DNA of 36,196 nt from NCBI GenBank assembly GCA_001800185.1, contig MGUX01000167.1, forward strand, positions 19,937 through 56,132, given 5' to 3'. Under the pieces are notes generated by a model. It was not told where the DNA came from and searched no databases. It worked only from the letters and a program-made list of their open reading frames with translations. This DNA is from Elusimicrobia bacterium RIFCSPLOWO2_12_FULL_59_9 (lineage in GTDB: Bacteria > Elusimicrobiota > Elusimicrobia > O2-12-FULL-59-9). Made by a program: the position numbers and the translations under genes. Shown here one piece after another: positions 5,175-24,945 of the stretch (positions within the stretch are counted from its first letter, which is position 1; each line of letters starts with the position of its first letter).

Positions 5175-7178
5175 CGCCTTGCGCCGCGTGAAGGCCCAGC
5201 CCGCCGCAAGAGCCATAACCAGAAGCGCCTGCCCCATCAACGTCTCCCAGGTCGGATAAATGCCCAGGAAGGGCAGTTCCCTCATCCAAACAAACGGGTG
5301 AAGCGAAACCCAGCCCGCTCCTTGAAGCTCATGCAGTCCGCGGCCCATGAAGGAGAAAGCCAGGGCGTAGAGCATGCCGCTGGTCGCGACAAAAAACGTC
5401 CGCATCGGAATCCTGACTTCCAAGCGGTAAAAAGAAACAAACAGAACGGCCAGGAGCGCGGCGCCCGCCAAAAAACCAGCCAAAACGATCGCTTTATTGA
5501 CTGCGGCGAAACCGAGGAGAGCCTGATAGAAAAGCACCGTCTCAAAACCTTCCCGGTAAACGGCCAGAAAGGCGGCGAAGCCCAGCATCGCCGCGCTGCC
5601 GGAGCCGAGCGCTCCCTGCAGTTGACCGCGGATAAAGGACCGCCATTTTTCCGCCTCCGCCTTGGCCAGAAGCCAAAAGGAAACGTAAAACAGAACGGCC
5701 GCCGCCGCCAGCATCACCACGCCTTCGAGGCTTTCCTGGTTCAGGGCCGAAGTCCGCAAAAATCTCTGCGCCGCCCAGGCGGTCGCGAACGAGGCCGCCA
5801 CGCCCAGGGCCGCTCCCCGGTAAACCGTCCTCAGCTTGTCCGCATGACCCGCGCGCTTCAAGTACGCGATAAGCGCGGCGATAATGAGAATGGCCTCAAA
5901 TCCCTCCCGAAGAATGATGGTCAGGGACTGCAAAAACGCCACGGCGGGCGATGATGAGCGATCGAGGGCGCGCCTCAGCCTATCCAAACGCGCTTCTATC
6001 CCGCTTTTTGAATTTATGATTTCCGCGCGGGGCGCCGCTTGAAGCAGCTTGGCCCGCAAAAGCGGAAAAGCGCTCTCGAGGTAGCGGTTGTCCTCCGGGG
6101 CCTTGGAGGCCGCCCGCGCTTCGATGCGTTCGTAGCGAAGATACGCCTCCAGGGCGGCATCCGCGGAGTCTTTGAAAGCGCCGCGATCAAAAAATTCCAA
6201 GCTGCCCGCGAGGCTAGCCTTCACCTGCGCGATCACGGAGACGATTTCGTCCTGCGGCGCGGAGTCCCCCTCCCCTCCCGCTTCGAGCTTTCGCGCGGAG
6301 CGCCAATAAGCCGACAGCAGCGCGGCTTCCTCGCCGGAGAGGCCCGCCTCCGGACGCCCGGTCAGGAGCGCGGACGCTTCGAGCTCGCTTCGCTCAGCCC
6401 AGAATTTCAGGCTCTTGAACTCCCCCGGCAAGCGCCCGCGCGCACGCTCGTAAATTTTTTCGGCCTTCTCGATGTCCCGCGGAGAGAGGGTGAAGCTCCA
6501 GAGGTAGGCGACCACGTCCCAGCGCTCGCTTTCGCTCAGAGTCTCCGCCCACGAAGCCATCGCGGTTCCCCCCACGCCGACCGCCACCGTCTGGAAGAAG
6601 CTCAGCGGGGAAGCCGCGCGCATGAAATCTTTTTCGGTGAAGGCCGGAGGCGGCGGCTGAAGAGCCGCCGCCGCCGGGCCCTTGCCGTCTCCGGCCGCGC
6701 CATGGCAGGCCGCGCAGTTTTGAAGGTAAATCCGCCGCCCGGAGTCGAGCGAGGGACGGCTCATGGGAAGAGCGTGGGTCGAAACGCCGAAGGATTTTTC
6801 AAGAGAAACCCGCAGGCCCTCCGCGAGCCGCCGCACGTCTTCCGGCGCCTCTTTGTCCCGGACTTTGGCTTGGAGAAATTTGAAATCGTTTTTGAGCGCC
6901 GAATTCTTGGCCGCGCTCAACCCGGCCTCTTGGGCGGCGCGCTCGTACTGAGCCGCCGCCGCCGCCGTGAAATCAACGGCCTCGCCGTATTCGCCGGGGT
7001 TGACGACGCGTCCGCCCGCGACCCCAAGGCCGTATTCCTTGGCCGCGATGTTGAGCGTAAAGACGATGCGCTGCACCTGCGCCCGCCGCCCGGTGGCCGC
7101 CTCCTGCGTCCGCGCGGCGGAGGACAAGACAGGCAGCATCAGGAAAGTCAAAAACGCGCGGACAATGAAGCGATGCAT
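4938..7178 (-). CDS. cytochrome c domain / FTR1 (EfeU)-family high-affinity iron permease fusion protein
   Basis: Signal peptide, heme-binding CAACHG with a downstream Met ligand region, and a long helical linker. The polytopic permease then carries two REGFE motifs (ILREGFEAIL, VYREGFETVL), diagnostic of FTR1/EfeU. The last roughly 79 codons run antisense through the tatC 3' end. Confidence 0.85.
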   Translation of the reverse strand: MHRFIVRAFLTFLMLPVLSSAARTQEAATGRRAQVQRIVFTLNIAAKEYGLGVAGGRVVNPGEYGEAVDFTAAAAAQYERAAQEAGLSAAKNSALKNDFKFLQAKVRDKEAPEDVRRLAEGLRVSLEKSFGVSTHALPMSRPSLDSGRRIYLQNCAACHGAAGDGKGPAAAALQPPPPAFTEKDFMRAASPLSFFQTVAVGVGGTAMASWAETLSESERWDVVAYLWSFTLSPRDIEKAEKIYERARGRLPGEFKSLKFWAERSELEASALLTGRPEAGLSGEEAALLSAYWRSARKLEAGGEGDSAPQDEIVSVIAQVKASLAGSLEFFDRGAFKDSADAALEAYLRYERIEARAASKAPEDNRYLESAFPLLRAKLLQAAPRAEIINSKSGIEARLDRLRRALDRSSSPAVAFLQSLTIILREGFEAILIIAALIAYLKRAGHADKLRTVYRGAALGVAASFATAWAAQRFLRTSALNQESLEGVVMLAAAAVLFYVSFWLLAKAEAEKWRSFIRGQLQGALGSGSAAMLGFAAFLAVYREGFETVLFYQALLGFAAVNKAIVLAGFLAGAALLAVLFVSFYRLEVRIPMRTFFVATSGMLYALAFSFMGRGLHELQGAGWVSLHPFVWMRELPFLGIYPTWETLMGQALLVMALAAGWAFTRRKALSPEMSDPDGNLVEQVGGDDEGQLRKEIGSRRQNGAHNGDGQQSVPAVMAQHPGLDDAQADQNENYDGQLKHRSEADA

Positions 7179-7279: not shown

Positions 7280-7987
7280 TCAACGGACGGAGTCTTTGAG
7301 GTCGAAGCGGTAGCCGACGCCGTGGATGGTGCGGATGAGGGCGGCGGCCTCCCCCATTTTCTTGCGGAGGTTTTCAATGTGCTTGTCGACGGTGCGCCCG
7401 GGAGACGGCGCGGAATCCTTCCAGACGTAGTTCTGCAGATAGCCGCGGGTCAACACCTTGCCCTGGTTTTCCAAAAGGCAGACCAACAGCTCAAATTCCA
7501 TAGGCGCCAGGCGCACCTCCGCGTTGGAAATCCAAGCGCGGTGCTCGCCGGTCTTGACCAAAATGGGGCCGCTGCGCAGATCCTTGCCCCCCAAGACATC
7601 CTGCTGCCAATTGAGCCGGCGCAGCAAAGCCTCGATGCGGGCCAATAGGATATCCCTTTCAAACGGCTTCCGGATGAAGTCGTCGGCGCCCAGGCGCAGC
7701 GCCTCCACGGCGTAGTTGCTGTCGCTGGATGCGCCCGAATACATGATCACGGGGACGTTTTTGAGCTTGTCGTCGGCCTTCACAATTTTAAGAAGCCCCC
7801 AGCCGTCGATGCCGGGCATATGCACGTCCATGATGACCAAGTCGGGAGGATCGTAGGGCATCACCTTGACGACTTCTTGGGAGCGCGCGTAGAGCTGGGG
7901 CGAGTATCCCGCCTGCCCCAAAACGAACTTGAGGAAGTCCCGCACGTCGTCGTCGTCCTCGATGATCGCGATGGTTTTGCCGGCCAT
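7280..7987 (-). CDS. OmpR/PhoB-family response regulator (REC + winged-helix)
   Basis: REC motifs IIEDDDD, LVIMDVHMPGIDG and DFIRKPF. The C-terminal trans_reg_C part has LAPMEFELLVCL...VDKHIENLRKK...IRTIHGVGYRF. Confidence 0.9.
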   Translation of the reverse strand: MAGKTIAIIEDDDDVRDFLKFVLGQAGYSPQLYARSQEVVKVMPYDPPDLVIMDVHMPGIDGWGLLKIVKADDKLKNVPVIMYSGASSDSNYAVEALRLGADDFIRKPFERDILLARIEALLRRLNWQQDVLGGKDLRSGPILVKTGEHRAWISNAEVRLAPMEFELLVCLLENQGKVLTRGYLQNYVWKDSAPSPGRTVDKHIENLRKKMGEAAALIRTIHGVGYRFDLKDSVR

Positions 7988-7998
7988 AAACCTGAGGG

Positions 7999-8385
7999 TC
8001 AGGATGCGGAAGTCTTGCGAAGCAGCGCCGCCACCCGCGCCAACACCTCTTCGGGAGAAAACGGCTTTAAAATGTAATCGTCGGCGCCCAATTTCAGGCC
8101 CTGAACGATTTCTTCCACTTGGGACCGAATCGTGATGAAAATGATGGGAATTCTCGGCTGGACCTCGCCGGAGCGTATCTTGGTACAGACCTCGTAGCCG
8201 TCCATTTTGGGCATGTTGATGTCCAAAAAAATCAGGTCCGGAGAGGTCTCTTCCAAAAGCTTCAAGCCCTCTTCCCCGTTGTCGGCCAGGACGACGCCGT
8301 AGCCTTCCGCGGCGAGAATCGTCTTGAACAGCCGCTGGTAGTCCGGCTCGTCCTCGATGACTAGAATTTTCTTCTTGGGCATCAA
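7999..8385 (-). CDS. single-domain CheY-like response regulator (REC only)
   Basis: KILVIEDEPD, LIFLDINMPKMDGYEV, DDYILKPF. The 128-aa product has no output domain. It starts 26 nt downstream of the tRNA 3' end with no intervening terminator. Confidence 0.9.
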   Translation of the reverse strand: MMPKKKILVIEDEPDYQRLFKTILAAEGYGVVLADNGEEGLKLLEETSPDLIFLDINMPKMDGYEVCTKIRSGEVQPRIPIIFITIRSQVEEIVQGLKLGADDYILKPFSPEEVLARVAALLRKTSAS

Positions 8386-8411
8386 ATCCCCGCGTTCCGG
8401 CTAAAAAGAAG

Positions 8412-8483
8412 TGCGCCCGACAGGAATCGAACCTGTACTTGCAGCTTCGGAGGCTGCCGTGATATCCTTTTCACTACGAGCGC
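8412..8483 (-). tRNA. tRNA-Arg (anticodon CCG), CCA not encoded
   Basis: Hand-folded cloverleaf. Acceptor GCGCTCG/CGGGCGC (one G-U pair), D arm GTGA-AAAGGATA-TCAC, anticodon arm GCAGC-CTCCGAA-GCTGC, 4-nt variable region, T arm ACAGG-TTCGATT-CCTGT, discriminator A. Confidence 0.9.
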
Positions 8484-8580
8484 CCCTGTCGCACCCTTGC
8501 GCTTCGCGCTCGGGCCTGAGGGTCCCTGCTCCAACGGTAAATCGCAGGGATGCTCCCCAAGGGGCTACCGCCCCTATGGC

Positions 8581-8602
8581 GGCACCGAGATATCTCGGTG
8601 CC
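8581..8602. repeat. perfect 22-bp palindrome GGCACCGAGATATCTCGGTGCC
   Basis: Read directly from the sequence. It is one of at least five consecutive GC-rich hairpins in 8484-8676. Whether it acts as a hairpin or an operator is unknown. Confidence 0.9.
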
Positions 8603-8676
8603 TGTACCCCATTATGGTCGGCGGGCCATGCCGCCGGATAGAGCCCTGCGCGGCGCTGACCAGTGGCAGCGCCCCG

Positions 8677-8769
8677 TACCACTCTACCACTTTACCACTC
8701 TACCACTTTACCACTCTACCACTTCCCCCCTGCCACTCGATCACTTTACCACTTGACCACTGACCACTT
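8677..8769 (-). repeat. tandem octamer array, 11 units of TACCACTY (minus strand RAGTGGTA)
   Basis: Six perfect alternating units TACCACTC/TACCACTT, then a C6 spacer, then five degenerate units (TGCCACTC, GATCACTT, TACCACTT, GACCACT, GACCACTT). The array lies 7 nt downstream of the alaS stop on the minus strand. Confidence 0.9.
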
Positions 8770-11612: not shown

Positions 11613-12305
11613 ATGGAAAGCAAAATCCTGATCATCGATGACGACCCGAAGATTCTAAAGATCATCCGGAGATTTCTGGCAAGCAACGCCTTCGAGGTCC
11701 TTGTGGCCGACAACGGCTCCGACGGCCTTGCTTTGGCCCGCGAGGCGCTGCCTGACCTCATTTTAGTGGATGCCGATATGCCGGACTTGGACGGCCATGC
11801 CGTGTGCCGGATACTCAAGAAGGAAGCTCTCAGCCGCCGGATTCCCGTCATCATCATGTCCGGCTCCAAGATTTCAGACAAGGACGTCCTCGCGGGCTTT
11901 GAGGGCGGCGCGGACGACTATATCATGAAACCGTTTTTCCCTCCGATCCTCCTGGCCCGAATCCGGGCCGTCTTGAAGCGCTACGCCGCATCCCCCCAAC
12001 GGGAGAGCGCATTCAAAAAGTCCGGCATCGAACTGAACCCGGCCGAGCGAACGGCGCGGGTGGACGGAAAATCAATCTCCCTGACGCGCAAGGAATTTGA
12101 TCTTCTGGCCAACTTGATCGACCAGAGCGGGCGCGTGCTCAGCATCCCCTATCTTTTGGAAACCGTCTGGGGTTACGATCCGGCCGATTATAATGACCCC
12201 GGCACGGTCGAGGTTCACATCTTCCACCTGCGCAAGAAATTGGGCCCGAAGGCCGGCAAGCGCATCGTCAACGTTCTCGGACACGGCTACAAGTTCAAAG
12301 AATAG
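11613..12305 (+). CDS. OmpR/PhoB-family response regulator
   Basis: ILIIDDDP, LILVDADMPDLDG, DDYIMKPF. DNA-binding part has LTRKEFDLLANL...VEVHIFHLRKKL...LGHGYKF. Confidence 0.9.
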   Translation: MESKILIIDDDPKILKIIRRFLASNAFEVLVADNGSDGLALAREALPDLILVDADMPDLDGHAVCRILKKEALSRRIPVIIMSGSKISDKDVLAGFEGGADDYIMKPFFPPILLARIRAVLKRYAASPQRESAFKKSGIELNPAERTARVDGKSISLTRKEFDLLANLIDQSGRVLSIPYLLETVWGYDPADYNDPGTVEVHIFHLRKKLGPKAGKRIVNVLGHGYKFKE

Positions 12306-12449
12306 ATCCATCCCCGCTAGTCCTCTAGACTTAAGCAAGACTTAAACACACCTTGAACCGGCATAGAGCCCGGCCCGCTACCCTATCAATATGAAAAGCG
12401 TACGGCAGGAAAACGACGCAACGGGAAAACAGGTCGTTTGGAGAAAACA

Positions 12450-14459
12450 ATGGAACAATTTGCGAACGGCATCGGGGCTCTGCTAAATTCCAACCACGAG
12501 TCCGCGGACGTCGCGCCGGTCCGCCCATCGTCCGGCAAAAACATTGTCCCAAAAGTGCTGGTGGTGGATGACGAAGTGGGATTCAGGGAGCTAATGGCCT
12601 ACGAATTGGAGACCCGGGGCTACCAGGTCGTCGGCGCCGCCAACGGCGAGGAAGCGGTCCGGCTGGCTCAGGGAAAAGATATTGACGTCGTCGTTTCGGA
12701 CGTGACGATGCCCAAGCGCGGCGGCCTGGATACTTTGAAAGCTTTGAAAGACGTGGATTCTAAAATTGAAGTGATCATGATGACCGGCTACGCCACTCTC
12801 GAAAACGCCGTAGAGAGCATGAAGCGCGGCGCCTACGACTTCATTACCAAGCCCTTCAAAATCGACCATCTGACAAGATTGATCGAGCGGGCCCTGGAAA
12901 AGCGCCGCTTGAACTGCAAGGTGGATGAACTGGAGGAGATCAACCGCTTTAAATCCGAATTTTTGGCCAACATGAGCCATGAGCTGAGAACGCCCTTGAA
13001 CGCGATATTGGGCTACACCTCCCTGCAACTGGATCGCATCTACGGGGAAGTGACGCCGAAACAAGAGGAATCCTTAAAGAGGGTCGAGGCGGCAGAAAAA
13101 AACCTGCTTCAACTCATCAACAGCATCCTGGACCTCTCGAAGGTCGCGGCCGGCCGCATGCCCGTTTACCGGGAGGATTTCAGCCTAAGGGAACTGGGCC
13201 AAGAGGTGATCGGGATGATGGAGTGCCTGGCCAAAGGCAAACAGCTCCGCCTGGAGTGGAAAATGCCGGAGGATATTCGCCTTCGAAGCGACAGAACAAA
13301 GGTCAAGCAAATCCTCATCAATTTGGTGACCAACGGCATAAAATTTACCCGCTCGGGGGGCGTTTTTATCGAGGCGGAGAGCGTGGCGGAAACCTCTCAA
13401 GCGCGCATTCGGGTCCGGGACACGGGCATCGGAATTAAAGCGGAAGATATCCCTCTTTTATTCCAAGAATTCAAGCAACTGGACTCCTCGCCCACAAGGG
13501 AATACGGCGGGACCGGATTGGGCCTGGTCATCAGCCAAAAATTCGCGGAGCTTCTAGGCGGGAGCATCGGCGTGGAAAGCGCGGCGGGGGCGGGCGCCAC
13601 CTTCACCGTCAACCTGCCATGGGAGGGCCAAGGGTCCAAGGAACCGGCGGCGCCGATTTCAACCGCGCCTTCCAATGGAAAAGACGGCAAAACGCTTTTG
13701 GCCATCGATGACGATCCGGAGGTCCTGGCGCTGCTCCGGGACAGCCTGCACGGCACCGGCTACGCCTTCGCGGGAGCCCTCACGGGCGAGGAAGGCATCG
13801 CCATGGCCCGAGAAAGAAAGCCCTTCGCCATCACCCTCGACATCATGATGCCTCACCGGGACGGATGGTCCGTCCTGCAGGTCTTGAAAAATGATCCGGA
13901 CCTGCGCTCCATTCCCGTGATCATGGTCTCCATTTTAGACAACAAGAGCCTCGGGTTTGCCCTGGGCGTCAACGACTACATCGTCAAGCCTTTTGAGCGG
14001 CGCGAACTGCTGGAGAAGCTCCGGACGGCGGAACGCAGCCTCCAGTCGAGACCTCCGGCCCCCGGCCAGTTGCCCCGGACGATTTTGGTCGTGGATGACG
14101 AGGCGGCGGTCGCGGACTACATCCGCGAAACCCTGAGCGCCGAAGGCTACGCGGTCGAGGCGGCCGCCGACGGGAGGGAAGCTCTCGCCAAGCTCGCCGG
14201 CGGCAGTCCCCCGGATATCTTGTTTTTGGACCTGATGATGCCGGGCATCAACGGCTTCGACATCATCGAAGCCATCGACAAAGAACCTCGCCTGAAGAAA
14301 GTCCTGACCATCGTCTTGACCGCCAAGCACCTGACCCCGCAGGAAACGGATTATCTGCAAAAGCGGGTCGAGTTGGTCGTTCAAAAGGGCTCCAGGAATC
14401 TTCCGGAGATATTGACCGCCGTCAAGAAACGATTAAAAACGCTGGCGGAGGTCCGGTGA
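12450..14459 (+). CDS. soluble hybrid histidine kinase, REC-DHp(HisKA)-CA-REC-REC
   Basis: REC1 (VLVVDDE...VSDVTMPKRGG...DFITKPF), H-box FLANMSHELRTPLNAILGY, and CA with VRDTGIGI and GGTGLGLVIS. REC2 has LAIDDDP...LDIMMPHRDG...YIVKPF and REC3 has ILVVDDE...LDLMMPGINGF. There is no TM or periplasmic segment. Start set at ATG 12450 behind GGAG; the track start is a TTG at 12438. Confidence 0.9.
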   Translation: MEQFANGIGALLNSNHESADVAPVRPSSGKNIVPKVLVVDDEVGFRELMAYELETRGYQVVGAANGEEAVRLAQGKDIDVVVSDVTMPKRGGLDTLKALKDVDSKIEVIMMTGYATLENAVESMKRGAYDFITKPFKIDHLTRLIERALEKRRLNCKVDELEEINRFKSEFLANMSHELRTPLNAILGYTSLQLDRIYGEVTPKQEESLKRVEAAEKNLLQLINSILDLSKVAAGRMPVYREDFSLRELGQEVIGMMECLAKGKQLRLEWKMPEDIRLRSDRTKVKQILINLVTNGIKFTRSGGVFIEAESVAETSQARIRVRDTGIGIKAEDIPLLFQEFKQLDSSPTREYGGTGLGLVISQKFAELLGGSIGVESAAGAGATFTVNLPWEGQGSKEPAAPISTAPSNGKDGKTLLAIDDDPEVLALLRDSLHGTGYAFAGALTGEEGIAMARERKPFAITLDIMMPHRDGWSVLQVLKNDPDLRSIPVIMVSILDNKSLGFALGVNDYIVKPFERRELLEKLRTAERSLQSRPPAPGQLPRTILVVDDEAAVADYIRETLSAEGYAVEAAADGREALAKLAGGSPPDILFLDLMMPGINGFDIIEAIDKEPRLKKVLTIVLTAKHLTPQETDYLQKRVELVVQKGSRNLPEILTAVKKRLKTLAEVR

Positions 14460-14863
14460 ACTCTAAAATCCTCATCGCCGACGACGATTACGACAATCGC
14501 TCGATTCTCAAGGCGGCTCTGGAGGCGGCGGGCTTCCAGGTCCTTGAAGCCGCCGACGGCCAGGAAGCCGTCGATACGGCGATCCAGGAGCGGCCCCGCC
14601 TAATTTTTATGGACCTTTCCATGCCCAAGATAAGCGGCTGGGAAGCCACCCAACGCATACGGCAGATTCCCGAGATTTCCCGCACTTTTATCTTCGCCTT
14701 TACGGCGCATGCCCTGCAAGGCGATGAAATCAAAGCCAAAGCCGCCGGCTGCGATGATTATATTTCAAAGCCCTGCGTTCCCCGCGAGATCGTCCAAAAA
14801 GTTCTCAGCATCATCACAATGGGAAAGGAAACCGAGCATTATGGCCAACATCCTGGTCATTGA
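14456..14863 (+). CDS. single-domain CheY-like response regulator
   Basis: ILIADDDYDNR, LIFMDLSMPKISGWE, DDYISKP. Its GTG start overlaps the kinase stop (GTGA). Confidence 0.88.
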   Translation: MNSKILIADDDYDNRSILKAALEAAGFQVLEAADGQEAVDTAIQERPRLIFMDLSMPKISGWEATQRIRQIPEISRTFIFAFTAHALQGDEIKAKAAGCDDYISKPCVPREIVQKVLSIITMGKETEHYGQHPGH

Positions 14864-15218
14864 CGACGACACGTCCAACCGCGACATCCTCAGGGCCCGG
14901 CTTGAGCGGGCCGGCCACCGGGTGGCGGAGGCCGGCAACGGCGAGGAGGGAATAGAAATAGCCCGGAATCTATCCCCGGACCTCATCATCTTGGACGTCA
15001 TGATGCCCAAGTTGGACGGGTGGCAGGCCTGCCGGCGCCTGAAGTCCGACTCCAAGACCAAGACCATTCCGGTGGTGCTTTTGACGGCCCGGAGCCAGCA
15101 TATTGAGGAGCTCAGAGGCTGGGAATCCGGAGCGGACGAGTACATGACGAAGCCTTGCGATCACCGGCGCCTGATGGACCTCGTCGCCCGGTTCGTGGAC
15201 AAGAGCTCCGCGCCATAG
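14841..15218 (+). CDS. single-domain CheY-like response regulator
   Basis: Internal ATG of the 14709 ORF gives MANILVIDDDTSNR..., LIILDVMMPKLDGWQ, DEYMTKP. It overlaps the preceding REC gene by 23 nt. Confidence 0.88.
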   Translation: MANILVIDDDTSNRDILRARLERAGHRVAEAGNGEEGIEIARNLSPDLIILDVMMPKLDGWQACRRLKSDSKTKTIPVVLLTARSQHIEELRGWESGADEYMTKPCDHRRLMDLVARFVDKSSAP

Positions 15219-15221
15219 AAT

Positions 15222-16742
15222 ATGCCCTCCGAAACGAACGCCGCCGGTTTATCTTCCTTCAAAATCGCCCCCGAGCTCTTGAAGCTCATCCCGTTTGAGA
15301 CCATGCGGCGGCATTGCCTGGCGCCCGTTGACCTCAACAACGGCAAGCTCCGGCTGGCCATGGTGAGACCCAAGGACCTTACGGCCATGGATGACATCCG
15401 AATATTGACCGGCCATGAGCTGGAGATTTTCCCGATATCCGCGGCGGAACTGAACGAAATCCTGCGGCAGAATTTTATGGATTTAGCGGAGCATCCCGTT
15501 TACGCTGCTCTGAAGTTGGAATCCGCCGCGCCCGCCGCCGCGGGTTCCCCGTATCCTTCCGACCCCAATGCCGTCCAGTCGGTGGAAAGGCTTTTTAAGC
15601 TTGCCGTCGAGATGCGCGCCAGCGACATCCACCTGGAGCCTCAAAGGCAGGGCTTCTACGCCAGGTTTCGCGTCGACGGGGTATTGCAGACCATCCATGG
15701 GTTTCCCAAGTCCTCCCAGGCCGCCATGACCTCTCGAATCAAGGTCATGGCCAATATGGACATCTCTGAAAAACGGCTGCCTCAAGACGGCCAGGCGAGC
15801 CTCCGGCACGGGAACAAGAATATTGACCTAAGAATTTCCACCTTGCCGGGCAAATACGGGGAAAAGTTGGTGATCCGGATTCTCGATAAATCCGATTTGG
15901 CCTTGGGGCTGGAACGCCTGGGTTTTGAGCCCGGCGCGCAGAGCGTCTTTGAATCTTTAATAGAGCGATCCTATGGAATTATATTGGTCACGGGCCCGAC
16001 AGGCAGCGGAAAAACCACCACCCTTTACGCGGTCTTGAATCGTCTCAAGTCGCCCCTCAAAAACGTCATCACTTTGGAGGACCCCATCGAATACGAGCTC
16101 CTGGCGGGCAACTCCAACGAGATGGGAATCACCCAGGTTCAAGTGCAGCCTAAAATAGGCCTGACCTTCGCCGCGGGCCTGCGCTCCGCCTTGCGGCAGG
16201 ACCCGGACGTGATTATGGTCGGCGAAATTCGCGACAAGGAAACTGCGGAAACGGCGATGAAGGCCGCCATGACGGGGCACCTGGTGATGTCCACTCTGCA
16301 TACCAACGATGCTCCCAGCGCCCTCGGCAGGCTGATGGATATGGGGATAGAGCCGTACTTGATGGCCTCCACCATCATCGGGGTATTGGCCCAGCGTCTG
16401 GTGCGGCTATTGTGTCCCCGCTGCAAAGAGCAATACCGCCCCCCCGTCCGGGCCTTGAAAAATCTCTTCCCGAACCGGGAAGATGTCTCCAAGGCGATTT
16501 TCTACAGGCCCATTGGATGCGAGCATTGCCAAAAAACCGGCTACCGCGGCCGGCAAGGAATTTTTGAGCTGCTGACCATGACCGAGGAGCTCAAACAAAA
16601 AACCCACTGCGGAGAGCACCTGGAGAGCCTGCGCAAGCTTGTCCAATCTCAGGGGCTGAAGTCCCTGCGGGAAAGCGGGATGGAACTGGTGTTCCAAGGC
16701 TTGACCACCGTGGAGGAAATATCCAGGGTAACCGTGGAATAG
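15222..16742 (+). CDS. GspE/PilB-family secretion/pilus-type hexameric ATPase (orphan)
   Basis: N-terminal T2SSE_N-like domain (LIPFETMRRHCLAPVDLNNGKLRLAMVRP), Walker A GPTGSGKTTT and Asp box ITLEDPIEYEL. Walker B DPDVIMVGEIRD, His box GHLVMSTLHTNDA and the tetracysteine CPRC...CEHC are also present. No pilin, platform (GspF/PilC) or secretin gene lies in the window. Confidence 0.92.
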   Translation: MPSETNAAGLSSFKIAPELLKLIPFETMRRHCLAPVDLNNGKLRLAMVRPKDLTAMDDIRILTGHELEIFPISAAELNEILRQNFMDLAEHPVYAALKLESAAPAAAGSPYPSDPNAVQSVERLFKLAVEMRASDIHLEPQRQGFYARFRVDGVLQTIHGFPKSSQAAMTSRIKVMANMDISEKRLPQDGQASLRHGNKNIDLRISTLPGKYGEKLVIRILDKSDLALGLERLGFEPGAQSVFESLIERSYGIILVTGPTGSGKTTTLYAVLNRLKSPLKNVITLEDPIEYELLAGNSNEMGITQVQVQPKIGLTFAAGLRSALRQDPDVIMVGEIRDKETAETAMKAAMTGHLVMSTLHTNDAPSALGRLMDMGIEPYLMASTIIGVLAQRLVRLLCPRCKEQYRPPVRALKNLFPNREDVSKAIFYRPIGCEHCQKTGYRGRQGIFELLTMTEELKQKTHCGEHLESLRKLVQSQGLKSLRESGMELVFQGLTTVEEISRVTVE

Positions 16743-16770
16743 CTTGACGGCACCGGCAGGAGATAATAAT

Positions 16771-18414
16771 ATGGAGCACCCAATAAAAATCTTGGTGGTT
16801 GACGACGAGCTTGGAATCCGCGAGCTTCTCTCCTCGGAACTCGGCTCCCGCCAGTACCAGGTGGCGACCGCCGCCAACGGCGAAGAGGCGCTGGAAAAGG
16901 TCAAAAATGAGAAGTTTCATCTCGTGATCAGCGACGTCAGAATGCCCAAAATGGGCGGCCTCGAAATGCTGGAGGCGATTAAAAAGATAGACCCGGACGT
17001 GGAAGTCATCATGTCCACGGGCTACGGAACGATTGAGGCCGCCGTCAGAGCCATGAAAAGAGGCGCCTATGACTTTGTGCTCAAGCCGTTTAAGCTGGAA
17101 CAATTCCTGGCCCTTATCGACCAAGCGCTGGAGAAAAACGACCTGAAGACGCTTCTGGGAATCTACGAAACCAGCAAGGCGATCTCCGCGTCCGTCAAGC
17201 TCGAAACGCTGCTTCCGCTCATGGCGAAGTTTTCCAGCGGAATTCTCGGCGCCGACGACGCTTCAATTATGACGGTCGATCCGGAAGGCGGGCTCTCGCT
17301 GGCGGCGGCCGCCGGTATCGAGGAGGATGGGCGGAAAATGGCCCGCCTGGCGCTGGGAAAGCGCGCGGCGCAAGCGGCGGCGCCGGCCAAACCGGGCGGC
17401 ATGATTTTGGGGCCGTTGGACAAGGACCCGGAATTCGCTGGGTCCCCCCTGCTTCAAGACATACGCTCTTCCATCGTTTTTCCGTTATGCGCGGAGGGAG
17501 AAGTTTTGGGCTTCTTCAACGCCAACCGCACGCGCATGGAAGAACCCTTCACCGCCTCCGAACTCCGCCACGCGGCCATTTTCGCCTCCCAAATCGCGCA
17601 AGTGCTCCACAACGCCAAGCTCTGCCGCCAACTGGAAGAAAAAATCCAGGAAATCCAGAGCATGCGGGATCAGCTTGTCCACACCGAGAAATTGGCGGCC
17701 ATGGGCCATGCGGTCGCGGGAGTGGCTCATGAAATCAACAACCCCTTGACCGGCATCATGGGGTTCGCGGAGCTTTTGCTCAACAGCGGCGGCCTCACCG
17801 CCGAACAGCGCGATGATCTGCAGAGCATCCAGCACCAGAGCCTGCGCTGCGGCAAAATCGTCCGCAATCTCCTGCAGGTCAGCCGAAAGAAAACACCCGG
17901 AGAGGCGGCGGCGCCTCTGGAAAAAATACTGGCGCCGGCTTTGGAACTGTTTAAGCGCGATTTTCAATCGGCCCGCATCGAGATTTTAAAGCATGTGCCG
18001 GAAGACCTGCCGCCGATCCAGGGCGACGCCTCCCAATTGGAGCAGGTCTTCCTCAACATCATCGCCAACGCCCGCCAAGCGATGGAAGGCAAAAGCGGGG
18101 GCGTCCTAAAAATAGAGGCCTGCCGGCAGGGCCGGCGTATTTCTATACGGTTTGAGGACAACGGCTGCGGCATCTCGCCGGAAAATCTGAAAAAAGTGTT
18201 CGACCCGTATTTCACCACCAAACCGGCCGGAAAAGGCACGGGACTGGGGCTGTCCACCTCCCACGGAATTCTCCGGCAGCATCAAGGAACGATCCGGGTC
18301 GAAAGCACAGCCGGAGCCGGCGCCGCTTTTATCGTGGATCTGCCGGCCGGTCCTGAGCCGCCGGAGGATTCGCGGCGGCCGCGGACCCAAGCCGCCGAGG
18401 GGCGCTCGCAATGA
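16771..18414 (+). CDS. soluble hybrid histidine kinase, REC-GAF-DHp-CA
   Basis: ATG 16771 is preceded by AGGAG. REC (ILVVDDE...ISDVRMPKMGG...DFVLKPF), a GAF-like middle region, H-box GVAHEINNPLTGIMGFAELL, N-box NIIANARQAM, G1 EDNGCGI and G2 GKGTGLGLS. Confidence 0.9.
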   Translation: MEHPIKILVVDDELGIRELLSSELGSRQYQVATAANGEEALEKVKNEKFHLVISDVRMPKMGGLEMLEAIKKIDPDVEVIMSTGYGTIEAAVRAMKRGAYDFVLKPFKLEQFLALIDQALEKNDLKTLLGIYETSKAISASVKLETLLPLMAKFSSGILGADDASIMTVDPEGGLSLAAAAGIEEDGRKMARLALGKRAAQAAAPAKPGGMILGPLDKDPEFAGSPLLQDIRSSIVFPLCAEGEVLGFFNANRTRMEEPFTASELRHAAIFASQIAQVLHNAKLCRQLEEKIQEIQSMRDQLVHTEKLAAMGHAVAGVAHEINNPLTGIMGFAELLLNSGGLTAEQRDDLQSIQHQSLRCGKIVRNLLQVSRKKTPGEAAAPLEKILAPALELFKRDFQSARIEILKHVPEDLPPIQGDASQLEQVFLNIIANARQAMEGKSGGVLKIEACRQGRRISIRFEDNGCGISPENLKKVFDPYFTTKPAGKGTGLGLSTSHGILRQHQGTIRVESTAGAGAAFIVDLPAGPEPPEDSRRPRTQAAEGRSQ

Positions 18415-19175
18415 ACGCGCCCGGCCATATCCTTATCGTAGACGACGAACCCGCCATCCTCAGAGTCTGTGAAAGAACTTTATGCCAAATGGGATATCGC
18501 GTCAAAAGCGCGGCCGACAGCCGCGAAGCATTGCGGCAGATGGCGGCGGAAAACTTCGATTTCGTCCTGACGGACCTTGCCATGCCCGAGCCCGCCGACG
18601 GCGAAAGATTGACCGAGGAAATAGCGCGGAGATGGCCCTCGACCGACGTGGTCGTGATGACCGCCTATCCGGCCCTGGAGACCGCCATCCCCGTTCTAAA
18701 AAACGGCGCCCGGGACTATCTGGTCAAACCCATCCGCCCGGAGATTCTGCGATCCGTGGTCTCCCGCTGCTTTGAAAAGCGCCGCCTGTCGGGCGAATTA
18801 GACGGCGCCGAGAATCTGCTCCGGGAGTTGGAGGCGTCCCGCGCCAAACTCGAAAAAGTGGAACGGTTTCAAAAAGAAACGCTTGCCAGGCTTGGACGCG
18901 AACTGACAGGCCCCGTCAGCGCCAGCTTGCTGTCCCTGGAGTCTCTCTCGCAACTGCGTCCCAGCCTTAGAAAAATCAAGCTCTACAAGCTGGCCAGGGC
19001 CCGCCTCGTCGAGCTTCAGGAGCTCATCGAAAATCTGCTATTATTCGCCAAAAACCGCCGGCGGCGCCCGGCCGTTCATCGCTCTCCGACGAATGTGAAG
19101 GGGGTCATCCTGCCCGCGCAAGCGATCCAGGGAAATTCGGCGACCCGCGTCGCGGACTCGCCGGACGGCTCATGA
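18411..19175 (+). CDS. REC + coiled coil + His-less DHp-like domain protein (no catalytic domain)
   Basis: Intact REC (ILIVDDEP, LTDLAMP, DYLVKP). The H-box position reads LARLGRELTGPV where SHELRTPL is expected, so the phospho-acceptor His is Arg. This is followed by a DHp helix-2-like LVELQELIENLLLFAKN. ATGA overlaps occur at both ends. Confidence 0.8.
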   Translation: MNAPGHILIVDDEPAILRVCERTLCQMGYRVKSAADSREALRQMAAENFDFVLTDLAMPEPADGERLTEEIARRWPSTDVVVMTAYPALETAIPVLKNGARDYLVKPIRPEILRSVVSRCFEKRRLSGELDGAENLLRELEASRAKLEKVERFQKETLARLGRELTGPVSASLLSLESLSQLRPSLRKIKLYKLARARLVELQELIENLLLFAKNRRRRPAVHRSPTNVKGVILPAQAIQGNSATRVADSPDGS

Positions 19176-19893
19176 CGCAAAAAACAGCCCGTCCAGCCGT
19201 GCTTCTGGCCGCAGTCGCGGCAAGCGCCATTTTATCCTGGGTTTCGCCCAATCGGCCGCGAAAAGAATCAAGGACTCCGACGCGCTCTCGCTGCCGTTGA
19301 AATCCATCGAAAGGGAGGCGCTGCGCTGCATGAACCTGGTGCAGAACCTGCTCGCCTTTTCCAGGCAAAACAAGCCCGAGATGATGGAGTTCGACCTCAA
19401 TGAGACCGTGGAGGACACGCTCAGCATCGTCGAGGCGCAGGCGCGGCTTAAATCCGTGGAGATCGTCAAGGAGTTGGCGCCGCTGGAGCCGTTCTACGGC
19501 GACAACAATCAACTCCAGCAAGCCCTCGTCAATCTCTGCAACAACGCCATCGACGCGCTGCCGCAAAGCGGCAGGATCGTGATCCGCACCCGAAAAGGCG
19601 CCGCCCCAAGCGGCCACGGGATTGTTCTGGAGGTGGAAGACAACGGCGCCGGAATCCCGGAGGAAATTCGGGACAAGATATTCAATCCGTTTTTCACCAC
19701 CAAGGAAGTGGGAAAGGGCACCGGCTTGGGCTTGGCTTTGACTCACGATATCATCGAGAGGCACCAGGGAACGATTGAAGTCAAAAGCGCCGTGGGTCGC
19801 GGAACGACTTTCACCGTGTTTCTTCCCGCTAATAATTCGGCGACTCCACAGAAAAACGGCCGCGGCAGTTCCAACCTTCCGAGTCCATCATAA
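19172..19893 (+). pseudogene. frame-disrupted histidine-kinase-like gene (degenerate H-box + intact HATPase_c)
   Basis: ATG 19172 overlaps the upstream TGA and encodes MTQKTARPAVLLAAVAASAI. This aligns with EKLAAMGHAVAGVAHEIN of the neighbouring kinase, with His replaced by Ala. That frame stops at 19298-19300. The -1 frame continues ..ILGFAQSAAKR...LVQNLLAFSR and a complete CA domain ([36 protein letters not shown]). A small deletion plus frameshift lies near 19229-19240. The CA part could alternatively be made from TTG 19297 or ATG 19330. Confidence 0.55.
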
Positions 19894-19985: not shown

Positions 19986-20432
19986 ATGAAATATCGCGCT
20001 CTCGGTTTGGTTGCGGCCTTTCTTTTCGCTTTTTCCTTTTCTCCAGCGGCATTTGGCGCGGACGCGGCGCCGCAAAACGGCGTTAAATCGCGGCCGGCGG
20101 ATCGCCGCGACTTACGGCGCCTTCAAAAGGACTTAAAGCTTATCGCCGAGTCTCTGGCGGACCAGGTGGACGTGGAAGAAGAGGCGGAGCAATCCCTGGA
20201 TTTCTTGTCCAAAGAGGGCCTGGATCGCCAGGAGAGATTGGCGCAGAGCGGAAACATCGATCCTCAACTGGCCCCCGCGCTGGCGCGTCTCAACAAGCTT
20301 TTTGTTTCCCTGCCGCAAAAAAAATACGCCGAGCCTTACGGCGCGGAGTTGGTCCGGGCGCTGGCCCATGAAATCCGCTGGATCGCCGACAAAGCCAAGA
20401 CCAAAAAACAGCTTTTAAAAATGCTCGATTAG
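19986..20432 (+). CDS. secreted helical hypothetical protein
   Basis: Internal ATG gives MKYRALGLVAAFLFAFSFSPAAFGADA (signal peptide) followed by charged helical sequence. I recognise no family. Confidence 0.55.
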   Translation: MKYRALGLVAAFLFAFSFSPAAFGADAAPQNGVKSRPADRRDLRRLQKDLKLIAESLADQVDVEEEAEQSLDFLSKEGLDRQERLAQSGNIDPQLAPALARLNKLFVSLPQKKYAEPYGAELVRALAHEIRWIADKAKTKKQLLKMLD

Positions 20433-20998: not shown

Positions 20999-22133
20999 GT
21001 GTAGTGATTCATAATTAACTTGACAATAACCCTCGACGAGAGCTATCATATGCATCATGCACCTCGCTCCACCCATCCTCTTGTCCCCGGGAGAACGGTC
21101 CACTTTGGCCGCGTGGGCACATGCGAAGAGCCAACCATTACGGGTTATTCAGCGCGCGCATATCATCACCATGGCTGCTAACGGCGTGACCAGCCAAGAC
21201 ATTGCGGAACAGTTGGGAATTTCTCGGCCAACGGTGCAACTGTGGCGAGAGCGATTCCTCGCCCTCCGAGTGGCCGGACTCGAGAAAGATGCTCCACGCC
21301 CCGGCCGCATCCCGACCATTTCCGACAGCAAGGTCCGAGCCATCGTTGAAGCCACTCTGCACACGAAACCACCCACTGCAACTCACTGGAGCACTCGAAC
21401 TATGGCCGAGGCCCAAGGCGTCAGCCAACCCACAGTTCACCGAATATGGAAGCAGCATAACCTCAAGCCGCACTTGGTCAAGACTTTTAAGATCAGCCGC
21501 GACAAACATTTTATCGAGAAGCTCTACGATGTAGTCGGGCCTTATCTCAATCCTCCGGACAAATCCATTGTCCTGTGTGTCGACGAGAAAAGCCAAATCC
21601 AAGCCCTCGATCGCACCCAGCCAGGCTTACCAATCAAGAAGGGGCGCTGCGGCACGATGACGCATGATTACAAGCGCAACGGCACGACTACTTTGTTCGC
21701 GGCTCTCAGCATGCTCGATGGCAAGGTGATTGGCGAATGTATGCCGCGCCATCGGCATCAAGAGTTCATCCGCTTCCTCAAAAAGATCGATAGCGAGACT
21801 CCTTCTGGGTTCGATCTGCACATCATCGCCGACAACTACGCGACCCATAAGCATCCGCGCGTCAAATCCTGGCTGCAACGAAATCCGCGGTTCCATCTAC
21901 ACTTCATCCCAACTTCCAGTTCTTGGGTCAACATGGTGGAGCGCTGGTTCCGCGAAATCACCGACAAGCGCATCCGGCGCGGCATCTTCAAAAACGTGCC
22001 GGAGTTGATCGCCGCCATCCAAGAGTACCTGGACAATCATAACCAGAACCCACGCATCTTTACGTGGACCGCGTCCGTTGAACAGATTTTGGCGAAGGTC
22101 GCCAAATGTAAAGAAGCGTTGGTATCACTACAC
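20999..22133 (+). mobile_element. IS630-family insertion sequence (about 1.13 kb) in a CTAG target with TA duplication
   Basis: Ends GTGTAGTGAT...ATCACTACAC (terminal inverted repeats). Flanks read c-TA-[IS]-TA-g, the classical IS630/Tc1-mariner CTAG target with TA duplication. One DDE transposase ORF fills the element. Confidence 0.88.
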
Positions 22134-22136
22134 TAG
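21057..22136 (+). CDS. IS630-family DDE transposase
   Basis: N-terminal HTH (SQDIAEQLGISRPTVQLWRERF), second HTH (GVSQPTVHRIWKQHNLKPH), and DDE triad context VDEKSQIQAL / IIADNYATHKH / SSWVNMVERWF. The stop codon TAG is formed with the flanking TA duplication. Confidence 0.93.
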   Translation: MHLAPPILLSPGERSTLAAWAHAKSQPLRVIQRAHIITMAANGVTSQDIAEQLGISRPTVQLWRERFLALRVAGLEKDAPRPGRIPTISDSKVRAIVEATLHTKPPTATHWSTRTMAEAQGVSQPTVHRIWKQHNLKPHLVKTFKISRDKHFIEKLYDVVGPYLNPPDKSIVLCVDEKSQIQALDRTQPGLPIKKGRCGTMTHDYKRNGTTTLFAALSMLDGKVIGECMPRHRHQEFIRFLKKIDSETPSGFDLHIIADNYATHKHPRVKSWLQRNPRFHLHFIPTSSSWVNMVERWFREITDKRIRRGIFKNVPELIAAIQEYLDNHNQNPRIFTWTASVEQILAKVAKCKEALVSLH

Positions 22137-22183
22137 AATGGCCTTGCCCCGGTCAGGGGTCGCGTCGAGTAATGGAGGCAATC

Positions 22184-23053
22184 ATGAAAATAAATCGAGC
22201 GGCGTTGTCGGCGGCTTTAAGCGTTCTGCTGACGCTTTGCGGCGGCGGCGCGATGGCGCAGCAATCCAATTTTCAACTCTCTCCGGCGCCGATTCCATAC
22301 CCTTATTTCGAGCCGGGCCGCGCCGATTATAAACTTACCGGCAGCTACTTCACTATTTCGGCCGACCAACTCAGCTTCCGGGGAGGCGGCTTAAACGTCA
22401 TCGGCCGCAAGGCCTTCAGCGAGGCGGCGGCCCTGGACGGACAGATCGGTTTCCTCGCCATGAACGGGGAAATGCCGGGCTTCGCCCTTCCATTTTTATA
22501 CTCAGGCAGCGTATGGACGCCCGTCATTGACGGCAAAGGCAAGCTCACCGGCTTCAGCCTGCCTTTGAGCATGAACTTGGAGATTCAGCCAGCCAACGGC
22601 CACGCCGGGAGCTTGATTTTCTTCGGCGGGCCCAACGTGGCCATTTCCAGCCTCCTCATCCAGACGCCCTACCACGCTGTGGCGGGAGTGACGCCGGCCG
22701 CCAAGACCCTCTTCGAAGCGAGGGCCACGACCGGCCTCATGGGACTTCAGGGAGGAGTCCAGGCCGCCGTCAACCTGGGGCCCTTCAAAATCGCGCCTTT
22801 CGCCGTGATGGTGGCCGAGCGCGGGACGGTGACCTTCACCTTCCACAACGGTTACCGCGGCACCGACACTCTGGTGAAAGACTCGGTGGTGGACATCGAG
22901 CCCTTCACTCTCACCAGCTTCGGCGCGGACATCATCTTCATGCCGTGGAATCTTTCGTTGGGAACCCTATGGCAGCAGGCCGCCGCCAAGAAAAGTCAGG
23001 ACGGCTACAAGACCTTTTTGATGCAGCTCTCCTGGCATTTCCGCTCCTCATGA
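22184..23053 (+). CDS. secreted protein, probable outer-membrane beta-barrel
   Basis: ATG 22184 lies 5 nt after GGAGG. Signal peptide MKINRAALSAALSVLLTLCGGGAMAQQ, alternating-hydrophobicity strands throughout and an aromatic near-C-terminal LSWHF. Confidence 0.65.
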   Translation: MKINRAALSAALSVLLTLCGGGAMAQQSNFQLSPAPIPYPYFEPGRADYKLTGSYFTISADQLSFRGGGLNVIGRKAFSEAAALDGQIGFLAMNGEMPGFALPFLYSGSVWTPVIDGKGKLTGFSLPLSMNLEIQPANGHAGSLIFFGGPNVAISSLLIQTPYHAVAGVTPAAKTLFEARATTGLMGLQGGVQAAVNLGPFKIAPFAVMVAERGTVTFTFHNGYRGTDTLVKDSVVDIEPFTLTSFGADIIFMPWNLSLGTLWQQAAAKKSQDGYKTFLMQLSWHFRSS

Positions 23054-24175: not shown

Positions 24176-24204
24176 TTGATTTCATCCGACTCTTGTGCTA
24201 AACT
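24176..24204 (+). promoter_or_regulatory. candidate sigma70 promoter of the MNT/HEPN pair
   Basis: TTGATT - 17 nt - TAAACT, with TG at the extended -10 position (TGcTAAACT), about 40 nt upstream of ATG 24243. Confidence 0.4.
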
Positions 24205-24242
24205 CACCTGAGGCCGGCGCTGACGGAATCGCGGTATTTCCC

Positions 24243-24566
24243 ATGCAAAAACCACAAATTGATCTTGATCGAGAAATTGTAAAAGAAATCATCAAGACCA
24301 TCTTGAACTACAAAAATGTGGACAAAGTCGTTCTCTTCGGATCCCGCGCGAGCGCCACTTCCCGGGAAACATCCGACATCGACATAGCCATTTTCGCCAA
24401 ACCATGGTCGGACAAGGACACGAACATGGTGAAGCATCTGCTGGATGAATCGGTAAGCACTCCGCTGAAATTTGACGTAGTTCATTTCGGCGCCGTCGCC
24501 AAATCCGCGCTTCGCCGGGCGATAGTGACTCAAGGCAAGGTGATCTATGAATCGCGAGAGGATTAA
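24243..24566 (+). CDS. minimal nucleotidyltransferase (MNT), HI0073-like antitoxin-type
   Basis: LFGSRASATSRETSDIDIAIF is the GS-x(n)-D-x-D Pol-beta-type NTase motif. The small size and 20-nt overlap with a HEPN gene also fit. Confidence 0.85.
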   Translation: MQKPQIDLDREIVKEIIKTILNYKNVDKVVLFGSRASATSRETSDIDIAIFAKPWSDKDTNMVKHLLDESVSTPLKFDVVHFGAVAKSALRRAIVTQGKVIYESRED

Positions 24567-24945
24567 GGAGATTTACCTCGATTATAAAAAGGCCTTGGAG
24601 AGGCTTAAGGCCGCCTTAAATGAGGACACGGCCAAGGGAAGCATCATCGTCGACGGCACGATCCAGCGATTTGAGTTTTGCTTCGAGCTGGCATGGAAAC
24701 TGGCCAAGGCGCTGTTGAGCTTCGGCGGAATTGAGGCGGGCACGCCGAGGATGGTGGTCAAGGAGGCCCATCAAGCCAATCTGATAAAAGACGGGCAGGG
24801 TTGGATCGACATGCTGGAAGATAGGAACAAGACGTCCCACATTTACGATGAGAAACAAGCGCTCAGGATTTACAAAAAGATCAAAGGGAGTCATTTCAAG
24901 CTTCTGTCGAATTTTTGCAAAGCCGTCGATACAGACGCCCTGTAG
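24547..24945 (+). CDS. HEPN-domain protein, HI0074 (nucleotidyltransferase substrate-binding) family
   Basis: IQRFEFCFELAWKLAKALL and an Rx4H motif (DRNKTSHIYDE), characteristic of HI0074-type HEPN proteins. Confidence 0.85.
   Translation: MNRERIKEIYLDYKKALERLKAALNEDTAKGSIIVDGTIQRFEFCFELAWKLAKALLSFGGIEAGTPRMVVKEAHQANLIKDGQGWIDMLEDRNKTSHIYDEKQALRIYKKIKGSHFKLLSNFCKAVDTDAL

Follow-up and report, generated by a model that had tools for sequence, protein, structure and literature searches.

How can a cluster of signaling genes rich in kinases and receivers operate when no sensor is recognizable within it? This question is raised by a 36,196-nucleotide (nt) stretch of DNA from Elusimicrobia bacterium RIFCSPLOWO2_12_FULL_59_9 (contig MGUX01000167.1, positions 19,937 to 56,132; hereafter, the window), in which eight closely packed genes on the + strand, g0 to g7, span positions 11613 to 19893. 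They encode a response regulator (g0), two histidine kinases (HKs) headed by receiver (REC) domains (g1 and g5), two CheY-like receivers (g2 and g3), a GspE/PilB-family ATPase (g4), a kinase-derived protein (g6) and a broken kinase gene (g7), as listed in Table 1. Here, we compared this region with related loci. The comparison indicates that it is probably a partly decayed, or reduced, copy of a multi-kinase two-component cluster of Elusimicrobiota from which the sensor genes have been deleted, so that the sensor-less look of the window appears to be a product of deletions and not a property of the family.

Sensor genes of related loci and their loss from the window

The domain content of the window was evaluated with Pfam. 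No PAS, Hpt, HAMP, Cache, CheA, CheW, MCP, PilC or pilin family was found in any sizeable open reading frame (ORF) of the window, and g0 to g7 contain no 19-residue hydrophobic window at a Kyte-Doolittle value of 1.6 or above. The GAF domain of g5 is the sole ligand-type module. These scans reproduced the gene order and domain calls of the original prediction for positions 12450 to 19893, its count of 10 REC domains (8 in g0 to g6 and 2 at positions 7280 to 8385), and the absence of PAS, Hpt, transmembrane (TM) and CheA/CheW components. It had also described the genes as joined by GTGA/ATGA overlaps or by gaps under 30 nt, which holds for most junctions: g1/g2 share a GTGA overlap, g3/g4 are separated by 3 nt and g4/g5 by 28 nt, and g5/g6 share an ATGA overlap. 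The description fails at g2/g3, which overlap by 23 nt, and at the g6/g7 break, where the stop codon of g6 overlaps an ATG (19172) opening a 42-codon frame-shifted remnant and the long g7 ORF begins 121 nt later. Viewed by itself, the window would fit an intrinsically sensor-less cascade, a new kind of architecture with all input arriving through phosphorylation of N-terminal RECs: sensory, Hpt and TM segments are absent, the lone ligand-type module is the GAF of g5, and a canonical REC heads each of the intact kinases.

Related loci point in another direction, since L002, L161 to L167 and L172 have sensor kinases within the cluster or adjoining it. In L162, whose ATPase and g1 are 74% and 78% identical to those of the window, the cluster opens with an OmpR gene (69% identical to g0 over the full length), followed by CsgG/FlgO-like, REC, REC-GGDEF and HTH_17-REC genes ahead of g1. 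It continues through g1-g2-g3-g4-g5, a REC gene, an intact REC-HK (53% identical to g6) and a HisKA protein, and ends with an NMT1 binding protein, a HAMP-PAS-HK and further RECs. The more distant L172 (complete genome CP096137.1) has a comparable extended set, in which the sensors are a 6TM-PilS-like kinase, a HAMP-PAS kinase and a PAS kinase adjoined by FIST/FIST_C. PAS kinases are present in L163, dCache-PAS in L164, HAMP-PAS in L165 and L166, and sCache-HAMP-PAS and DUF4118 in L167; L002 harbors a 6TM kinase between g4 and g5 and a membrane PAS kinase further on. DNA-binding response regulators also accompany the core in most relatives, and a REC-GGDEF protein adjoins or lies inside the cluster in L162, L164 and L172. 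Because the extended OmpR-CsgG/FlgO-REC-REC-GGDEF arrangement is found in both the near L162 and the more distant L172, the short form seen in the window is the derived one. A gene at 22172 to 23053 was considered as a relocated CsgG/FlgO-like gene and rejected for lack of similarity.

In other loci, the sensor kinases are often accompanied by an ABC_sub_bind protein and a TonB-dependent receptor. We also observed, beside the core, a recurring module in which a TonB-dependent receptor, an ABC_sub_bind periplasmic protein or both accompany a HAMP-PAS kinase (L002, 14446 to 19247; L166, 3048 to 6172; L167, 1190 to 5873; and L001, 13225 to 18120, where the contig ends before any kinase of the module). 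This module may point to a nutrient or solute as the signal received in nature.

The second loss was resolved with L161, an Elusimicrobia metagenome-assembled genome (MAG) sharing 90 to 96% nucleotide identity with the window. It carries the same His-less g6, then a FIST gene and then an intact coil-PAS-HisKA kinase. Alignment by blastn matched L161 positions 1 to 815 to window positions 18257 to 19071 and L161 positions 2597 to 2699 to window positions 19234 to 19336; the 1,781 nt between them in L161 (816 to 2596), which hold the FIST gene, the PAS domain and the His box, are replaced in the window by 162 nt. Moreover, g7 is 69% identical to residues 517 to 724 of the 727-residue HAMP-PAS-HK of L162, and the best match to its CA domain is the sensor kinase of each relative in which one was found (46 to 69%). 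Since the sequence read as LAAVGQLAAGVAHEINNPLGIILGF in intact homologs is split in the window over two different frames (LAAVAASA and KRHFILGF), g7 is the stump of a PAS sensor kinase. The original prediction was right that this DHp-CA gene is broken; it is the remnant of a sensor kinase, at the place where L161 has its FIST and PAS-HisKA genes. In total, this genome has lost the FIST gene, the greater part of the PAS sensor kinase, and the four genes between the OmpR gene and g1.

Two other explanations of the break were rejected. That g6 and g7 are halves of a single frameshift-split gene is excluded because the CA domain of g6 homologs is unrelated to g7, which has a DHp remnant of its own and matches PAS or HAMP-PAS kinases. 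An assembly or sequencing error is ruled out by L169 and L171, two independent assemblies from other samples in which the whole arrangement, including the g6/g7 break, recurs at 99.85 to 99.9% identity, and is also countered by the nature of the lesion, in which approximately 1.8 kb are lost and the DHp carries several small changes besides. A third assembly, L170, differs only by a scaffold gap of Ns. The IS630-like transposase gene just past the decayed end of the cluster looks intact and is also present in L169 and L171. The only inverted repeats around it were two 15-nt pairs at chance level, and no terminal repeats tie it to the deletions.

These results bear on how the window should be read. 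The original prediction had granted that ordinary sensor components would make the cluster unremarkable; at the level of the family such sensors are present, as HAMP-PAS, dCache-PAS, PAS, 6TM-PilS-like and FIST-associated kinases, and about 1.8 kb containing the FIST gene and most of the PAS kinase of L161 is missing from the window. Kinases gated by a REC are not unprecedented either, as LvrB has been described as the prototype of a frequent Rec-HK class, and the feeding of such kinases by an upstream kinase, from LvrA to LvrB, is established (PMC13269768). With most relatives carrying sensor kinases in or beside the cluster and g7 being demonstrably what a deletion left of a PAS kinase with a neighboring FIST gene, we consider an intrinsically sensor-less cascade quite improbable. 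It could also be argued that the whole copy in the window is a decaying, nonfunctional relic whose close packing reflects mere ancestry, given its two deletions relative to close and distant relatives, the truncated g6 and broken g7, and the adjoining transposase gene. We regard this as very doubtful, because g1 to g5 are full length with all catalytic residues intact, g6 shows a ratio of nonsynonymous to synonymous substitutions (dN/dS) of 0.30 against L161, and approximately 99.9% identical sequence occurs in assemblies from three samples, the two gap-free ones having no further lesions. Overall, a reduced copy that has lost its sensor genes remains the reading we prefer.

Table 1. Position and composition of the cluster genes and of associated features in the window
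Feature	Positions	Strand	Basis
g0, OmpR-type response regulator (REC + Trans_reg_C), 230 aa	11613..12305	+	Pfam
Triple direct repeat GACTTAA-N4-GACTTAA-N4-ACCTTGA, 11-bp period, g0-g1 intergenic	12328..12356	+	
g1, hybrid kinase REC-alphaS-HisKA-HATPase_c-REC-REC, 669 aa (Asp84, His177)	12450..14459	+	Pfam
g2, single-domain CheY-like receiver, 135 aa	14456..14863	+	Pfam REC
g3, single-domain CheY-like receiver, 125 aa	14841..15218	+	Pfam REC
g4, GspE/PilB-family hexameric ATPase, 506 aa	15222..16742	+	Pfam MshEN/T2SSE, T2SSE E=3.5e-128
g5, REC-GAF-HisKA-HATPase_c kinase, 547 aa (Asp55, His320)	16771..18414	+	Pfam
g6, REC-alphaS-DHp protein without phospho-acceptor His (Arg163) and without CA domain, 254 aa	18411..19175	+	Pfam calls REC only
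Deletion scar, 162 nt, containing a frame-shifted start ATG at 19172	19072..19233	+	blastn vs L161
g7, PAS sensor kinase remnant (end of DHp helix 1, helix 2, intact-looking CA)	19231..19893	+	
g7 ORF as such, HATPase_c preceded by DHp helix 2, no His box	19297..19893	+	Pfam
HTH + DDE_3 (IS630-like) transposase gene; context, outside the system	21057..22136	+	Pfam

A five-gene core of kinases, receivers and an ATPase

Next, we asked how much of the cluster is shared among relatives. The core was scored as complete when a g1-like kinase, one or two CheYs, the ATPase and a REC-(GAF)-HK were present. By this definition it is complete in 11 other loci (L001, L002, L081, L085, L086 and L162 to L167) and partial in 4 (L003, L079, L082 and L172), where contig ends, frameshifts or real loss account for the missing parts; in these 15 loci the ATPase is 56 to 82% identical to that of the window. 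The neighborhood comparison proposed with the original prediction thus found the cluster conserved as a unit. A scan of species-representative genomes with the ATPase gave three Elusimicrobia MAGs at 57 to 68% identity and one fragment at 82%, and its approximately 75 other matches, at 41 to 47% identity, were ordinary pilB genes without receiver neighbors. A metagenome scan added four loci, and a contig look-up for further homologs yielded L162 to L167 and L172. The association ends below 56% ATPase identity, a 53% homolog being placed among housekeeping genes, and a g1 homolog at 47% identity has no ATPase nearby. All named sources of the cluster are Elusimicrobia, Elusimicrobiota or Endomicrobiales, and the g1 family comprises at least 120 protein clusters at 47% identity or more, all named ones being Elusimicrobiota.

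Conservation extends to the functional residues. The REC Asp, Thr and Lys residues, the His boxes, the N and G boxes and the ATPase motifs of g1 to g5 are invariant or nearly so. Among the 12 orthologs of g1 (49 to 78% identity), the first REC (REC1) and REC2 do not vary, nor do the His, N and G boxes. The exception is REC3 of g1 (residues 545 to 603 in the window protein), in which the acceptor Asp has been lost in L086 (Gly) and L164 (Asn) and the acidic pair in L163; in some lineages, this domain is apparently on the way to becoming a pseudo-receiver. Judged from this sequence comparison, the five-gene core g1 to g5 is a real conserved unit.

As originally described, both g1 and g5 start with a REC domain, and the canonical residues (DD, D84 or D55, T and K) are present and invariant in 11 to 12 orthologs. 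A DHp histidine and a CA domain with N and G boxes are found in g1 and g5; g6 (Arg163, no CA) and g7 (no His box) fail on these features. Because both begin with a canonical REC, g1 and g5 would belong to the class of REC-controlled kinases. The REC of g1 is linked straight to the DHp, with no domain between them; in g5 the GAF domain intervenes. REC1 of g1 and the REC of g5 are 57% identical, and every other REC pair of the cluster only 25 to 42%. Although g1 partly matches the BarA, TorS and ArcB models, the scores are far under the cut-offs, and no Hpt (PF01627) occurs in the window, so that no Hpt follows the kinase-attached receiver as it does in a BarA-type relay.

Two distinct, conserved single-domain receivers sit directly upstream of the ATPase gene. 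The signature of g2 is FAFTAHA...YISKPC, and it forms an orthologous family of its own, with 49 to 78% identity in 11 loci; g3 has the signature LTAR...GWESGADEY.TKPC, and its orthologs share 50 to 72% identity in 11 loci. Just 37% identity separates g2 from g3, and by this measure they are apparently two old, distinct receivers and not the result of a recent duplication.

The fate of g6 differs from that of the core. Its homologs are intact REC-HisKA-HATPase proteins of approximately 380 residues with a SHELRTP motif, for which g6 reads GRELTGP, so that the original call of a His-less protein was correct. Both the His-to-Arg change and the loss of the CA domain are shared with the 87% identical L161 protein. 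The two genes diverge at different points past the DHp, which suggests that the CA domain was removed separately in each, after the histidine had been lost. A dead pseudogene was not favored, in view of the dN/dS of 0.30 given above (REC, 0.22; DHp part, 0.40; 64 differences). The AlphaFold2 model of g6 (mean predicted local distance difference test score, 82) shows a REC, a 70-residue helix, a return hairpin helix and a disordered tail, with the continuous helix at residues 110 to 180 joining the REC to the DHp. A Foldseek search with this model returned mostly isolated REC domains; PorX alignments had a high root mean square deviation (23 to 25 A), and LvrB (8vc9), at rank 39, was the sole other match spanning approximately 238 columns, a weak one. 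These features predict that g6 is unable to autophosphorylate, its retained REC-DHp being able to accept phosphate and not to make it; it would probably act as a phosphate sink or as a dimerizing modulator through DHp contacts.

Possible control of the ATPase by the receivers

The ATPase g4 has an N1E-type N-terminal domain, Walker A and B motifs, Asp and His boxes and four cysteines. Its motifs (GPTGSGKTT, LEDPIEY, DPDVIMVGEIRD, GHLV.STLHTN and CxxC...CxxC) are invariant or nearly invariant in 13 orthologs, most of which also keep the N1E-type domain. The best PDB matches, at about 400 to 412 bits, were the PilB proteins of Geobacter, Thermus and Myxococcus, in alignments beginning at PilB residue ~80 to 85 and residue 8 of the query. 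As g4 starts approximately 20 residues ahead of the N1E-type domain, the helical module formed by the first ~80 residues of PilB is absent, and the length and domain layout are GspE-like. Control by cyclic di-GMP (c-di-GMP), considered from the MshEN match, was rejected, since only the N1E-type part is covered and those first ~80 residues are absent; a regular expression for the c-di-GMP motif missed its positive control, and the verdict on the absent MshEN module rests on length and alignment. No T2SSF, PilM/N/O, secretin or pilin family was found by Pfam in the window ORFs. In L172, a gene call at 12242 to 14368 fuses the ATPase to a REC (708 residues), which, given the many split calls there, may be a frameshift artefact. 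The closest ATPase outside the phylum belongs to L004 of Omnitrophota, at 47% identity, and is a full-length pilB (560 residues). In that locus (JAQTSV010000001.1, 8007 to 13557), the genes REC, REC, membrane HK, PilB, PilC and two pilin-like genes follow each other in the same orientation.

From these parts, a working order of signaling can be proposed. A sensor kinase, encoded in the cluster in relatives and necessarily outside it in this genome, would first phosphorylate the N-terminal RECs of g1 and g5, which are closely related to each other. As in LvrB, REC phosphorylation would then zip the linker helices and free the catalytic domains to autophosphorylate, after which g1 and g5 could hand the phosphate to g2, g3 and DNA-binding regulators. 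Finally, one or both phosphorylated CheYs would bind the ATPase. A machine encoded elsewhere, either a type IV pilus or a type II secretion-like system, would thereby be turned on, turned off or relocated, akin to the action of PixG/PixH or PilG/PilH on PilB. The step from CheYs to ATPase is proposed mainly because g2, g3 and g4 are closely coupled in every locus. The scheme is further favored by the 57% identity of the two N-terminal RECs, by the LvrB-like REC-alphaS-DHp geometry of g1 (Asp84 to His177), by the receivers and kinase placed ahead of pilB in L004 and by the dN/dS of g6. In its full form, and as a tentative proposal in which we place rather low confidence, Elusimicrobiota would possess a CheA-independent circuit of two REC-controlled HisKA kinases and two dedicated CheYs that bind an N-terminally shortened ATPase paralog for signal-controlled fiber assembly or secretion, or a signaling ATPase without a fiber, some lineages retaining g6 as a pseudo-kinase modulator.

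Several observations weigh against the working order of signaling. Only domain logic and paralogy set the sequence of steps in the relay; domain content, conservation, intact catalytic residues and deletions were observed directly. There is no Hpt to pair with REC2 and REC3 of g1, REC3 is degenerate in some orthologs, and L003 has neither g2 nor g5. With the adjacent sensors gone from this genome, input may come from kinases elsewhere, or the pathway may be in the course of being lost. Regarding the machine, no PilC/GspF, PilM/GspL, secretin or pilin was found within approximately 8 to 10 kb of the ATPase in L001, L002 and L162 to L167 (less at contig ends). Moreover, g4 scores under the NCBIfam cut-offs of both GspE (TIGR02533, 547 versus 630 bits) and PilB (TIGR02538, 521 versus 676 bits), and the 414-residue ATPase of L167 (9001 to 10245) lacks an N-terminal docking domain.

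Some of these points would suit an ATPase that is itself a signaling or scaffolding part, giving for example nucleotide or assembly-state feedback to the kinases, or that powers a process other than piliation or secretion: in Elusimicrobiota it is always placed among signaling genes and never beside PilC/GspF or pilins, it falls under both equivalog thresholds, and the first ~80 PilB residues in g4 and the docking domain in L167 are missing. We nevertheless consider this unlikely, as there is no variation in the catalytic motifs and zinc-binding cysteines that these proteins share with true extension and secretion ATPases, most orthologs retain the N1E-type domain, through which GspE docks to its platform, and the nearest outgroup gene is a genuine pilB located in a pilus operon.

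Surrounding features and comparison with known systems

The triple direct repeat between g0 and g1 has a counterpart in L162, where a comparable CTTAA triple repeat follows the OmpR ortholog (894 to 925), and is a candidate OmpR-family binding site. Across the window, (G)GCTTAA/GACTTAA direct repeats with an 11-bp period gave 8 matches at up to 3 mismatches, where shuffled sequence would give 0.78. The copy upstream of g1 is the perfect one, and further copies are at 30123 to 30140 (-), 31324 to 31341 (-), 24602 to 24619 and 20119 to 20136. Such repeats may be a shared response-regulator binding motif. Promoter and terminator scans found nothing exceeding the shuffled expectation inside the operon, and an Rfam scan of the window returned one tRNA only, with no riboswitch or leader within the cluster.

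That tRNA, a tRNA-Arg (anticodon CCG) at 8411 to 8483 (-), is placed just downstream of the alanyl-tRNA synthetase gene. An overlapping 93-residue ORF (8401 to 8682) is probably spurious, and its apparent conservation in L081 and L083 is presumably due to the tRNA gene. Between an FTR1-cytochrome c fusion permease (4938 to 7178) and these tRNA and synthetase genes lie a single-domain REC gene and an OmpR-type regulator (7280 to 8385, -) with no kinase gene adjoining; these orphan receivers could be further targets of the cluster kinases. Downstream of the cluster, a nucleotidyltransferase (Polbeta) and NTase_sub_bind/HepT-like pair (24195 to 24945, +) and PIN-domain genes (31507 to 31884, -, and 35262 to 35678, -) are probable toxin-antitoxin modules.

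To place the cluster among known systems, we compared it with described pathways. The nearest in kinase design is the Lvr pathway of Leptospira, which runs from LvrA to LvrB to LvrC (PMC13269768, PMC5863495) and in which phosphorylation of the LvrB REC zips the linker helices and releases the catalytic domains (D56/H161; PMC13269768). In both, a kinase core is placed after a phosphorylatable REC, which in g1 is joined by a helical linker, and as in the Lvr pathway an upstream kinase would supply the input of the cluster and the kinases would be chained. The core of g5 matches LvrB (8vc9) at 130 bits, the Asp-to-His spacing is 93 residues in g1 and 108 in g6 compared with 105 in LvrB, and the NCBIfam LvrA and LvrB models match g1 and g5 under their cut-offs. 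The cluster differs in having two Rec-HKs, two extra C-terminal RECs in g1, a GAF between REC and DHp in g5, and an ATPase and two CheYs between the kinases; an LvrC-type Rec-anti-sigma output is absent.

Pairing of two non-identical CheY-like receivers with a PilB-type ATPase recalls Synechocystis Tax1, in which phosphorylated PixG binds PilB1 and PixH antagonizes it (PMC11181946), and Pseudomonas Pil-Chp, with the antagonistic PilG and PilH (PMC10519157). In contrast to these, the kinases of the cluster are HisKA-type and REC-controlled, and the ATPase gene is placed among signaling genes. No CheA, CheW, MCP, PATAN or Hpt was found in the window or in any related locus examined; the scans without an Hpt, CheW or MCPsignal match covered the window ORFs and the Pfam lists of L162 to L167 and L172. 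The grouping of several kinases that probably cross-talk resembles the GacS/RetS multikinase network (PMC8498467, PMC5992135). As in DivL, whose histidine is replaced (PDB 4q20), g6 is kinase-derived, lacks the phospho-acceptor His and may act through DHp contacts; it differs in also lacking the CA domain and in keeping a canonical REC. The Omnitrophota locus L004, itself not a characterized system, is an independent instance of two receivers and a kinase directly upstream of the ATPase gene. There, however, PilB is full length, with PilC and pilins encoded after it; the kinase sits in the membrane and is under no REC control, and neither receiver is an ortholog of g2 or g3.

Kinases under REC control, hybrid kinases, networks of several kinases and the control of PilB by CheY-like proteins are all established. 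No description is known of HisKA-type REC-kinases conserved together with two distinct CheYs and an orphan ATPase: our literature searches found no paper describing the cluster, in agreement with the original prediction, to which no characterized system of this architecture was known, and a review of PilB cofactors lists no system of such composition. It fits neither a chemosensory pathway (no CheA/CheW/MCP), nor a BarA-type relay (no Hpt), nor a standard pilus or type II secretion operon (no platform or pilins). Overall, the cluster is real, conserved and uncharacterized, and is built of familiar parts.

For genome scanning, the window is a caution that the sensor-less look of a single genome may stem from recent deletions, which only comparison with close relatives shows. 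The cluster also offers natural Rec-kinase variants for the LvrB activation model, with the REC joined directly (g1), with an inserted GAF (g5) and in a His-less, CA-less form (g6). If the CheYs act directly on the ATPase, it would represent a second way, free of CheA, in which bacteria link phosphorelays to the motor of a type IV filament, and the phylum concerned has hardly been cultured.

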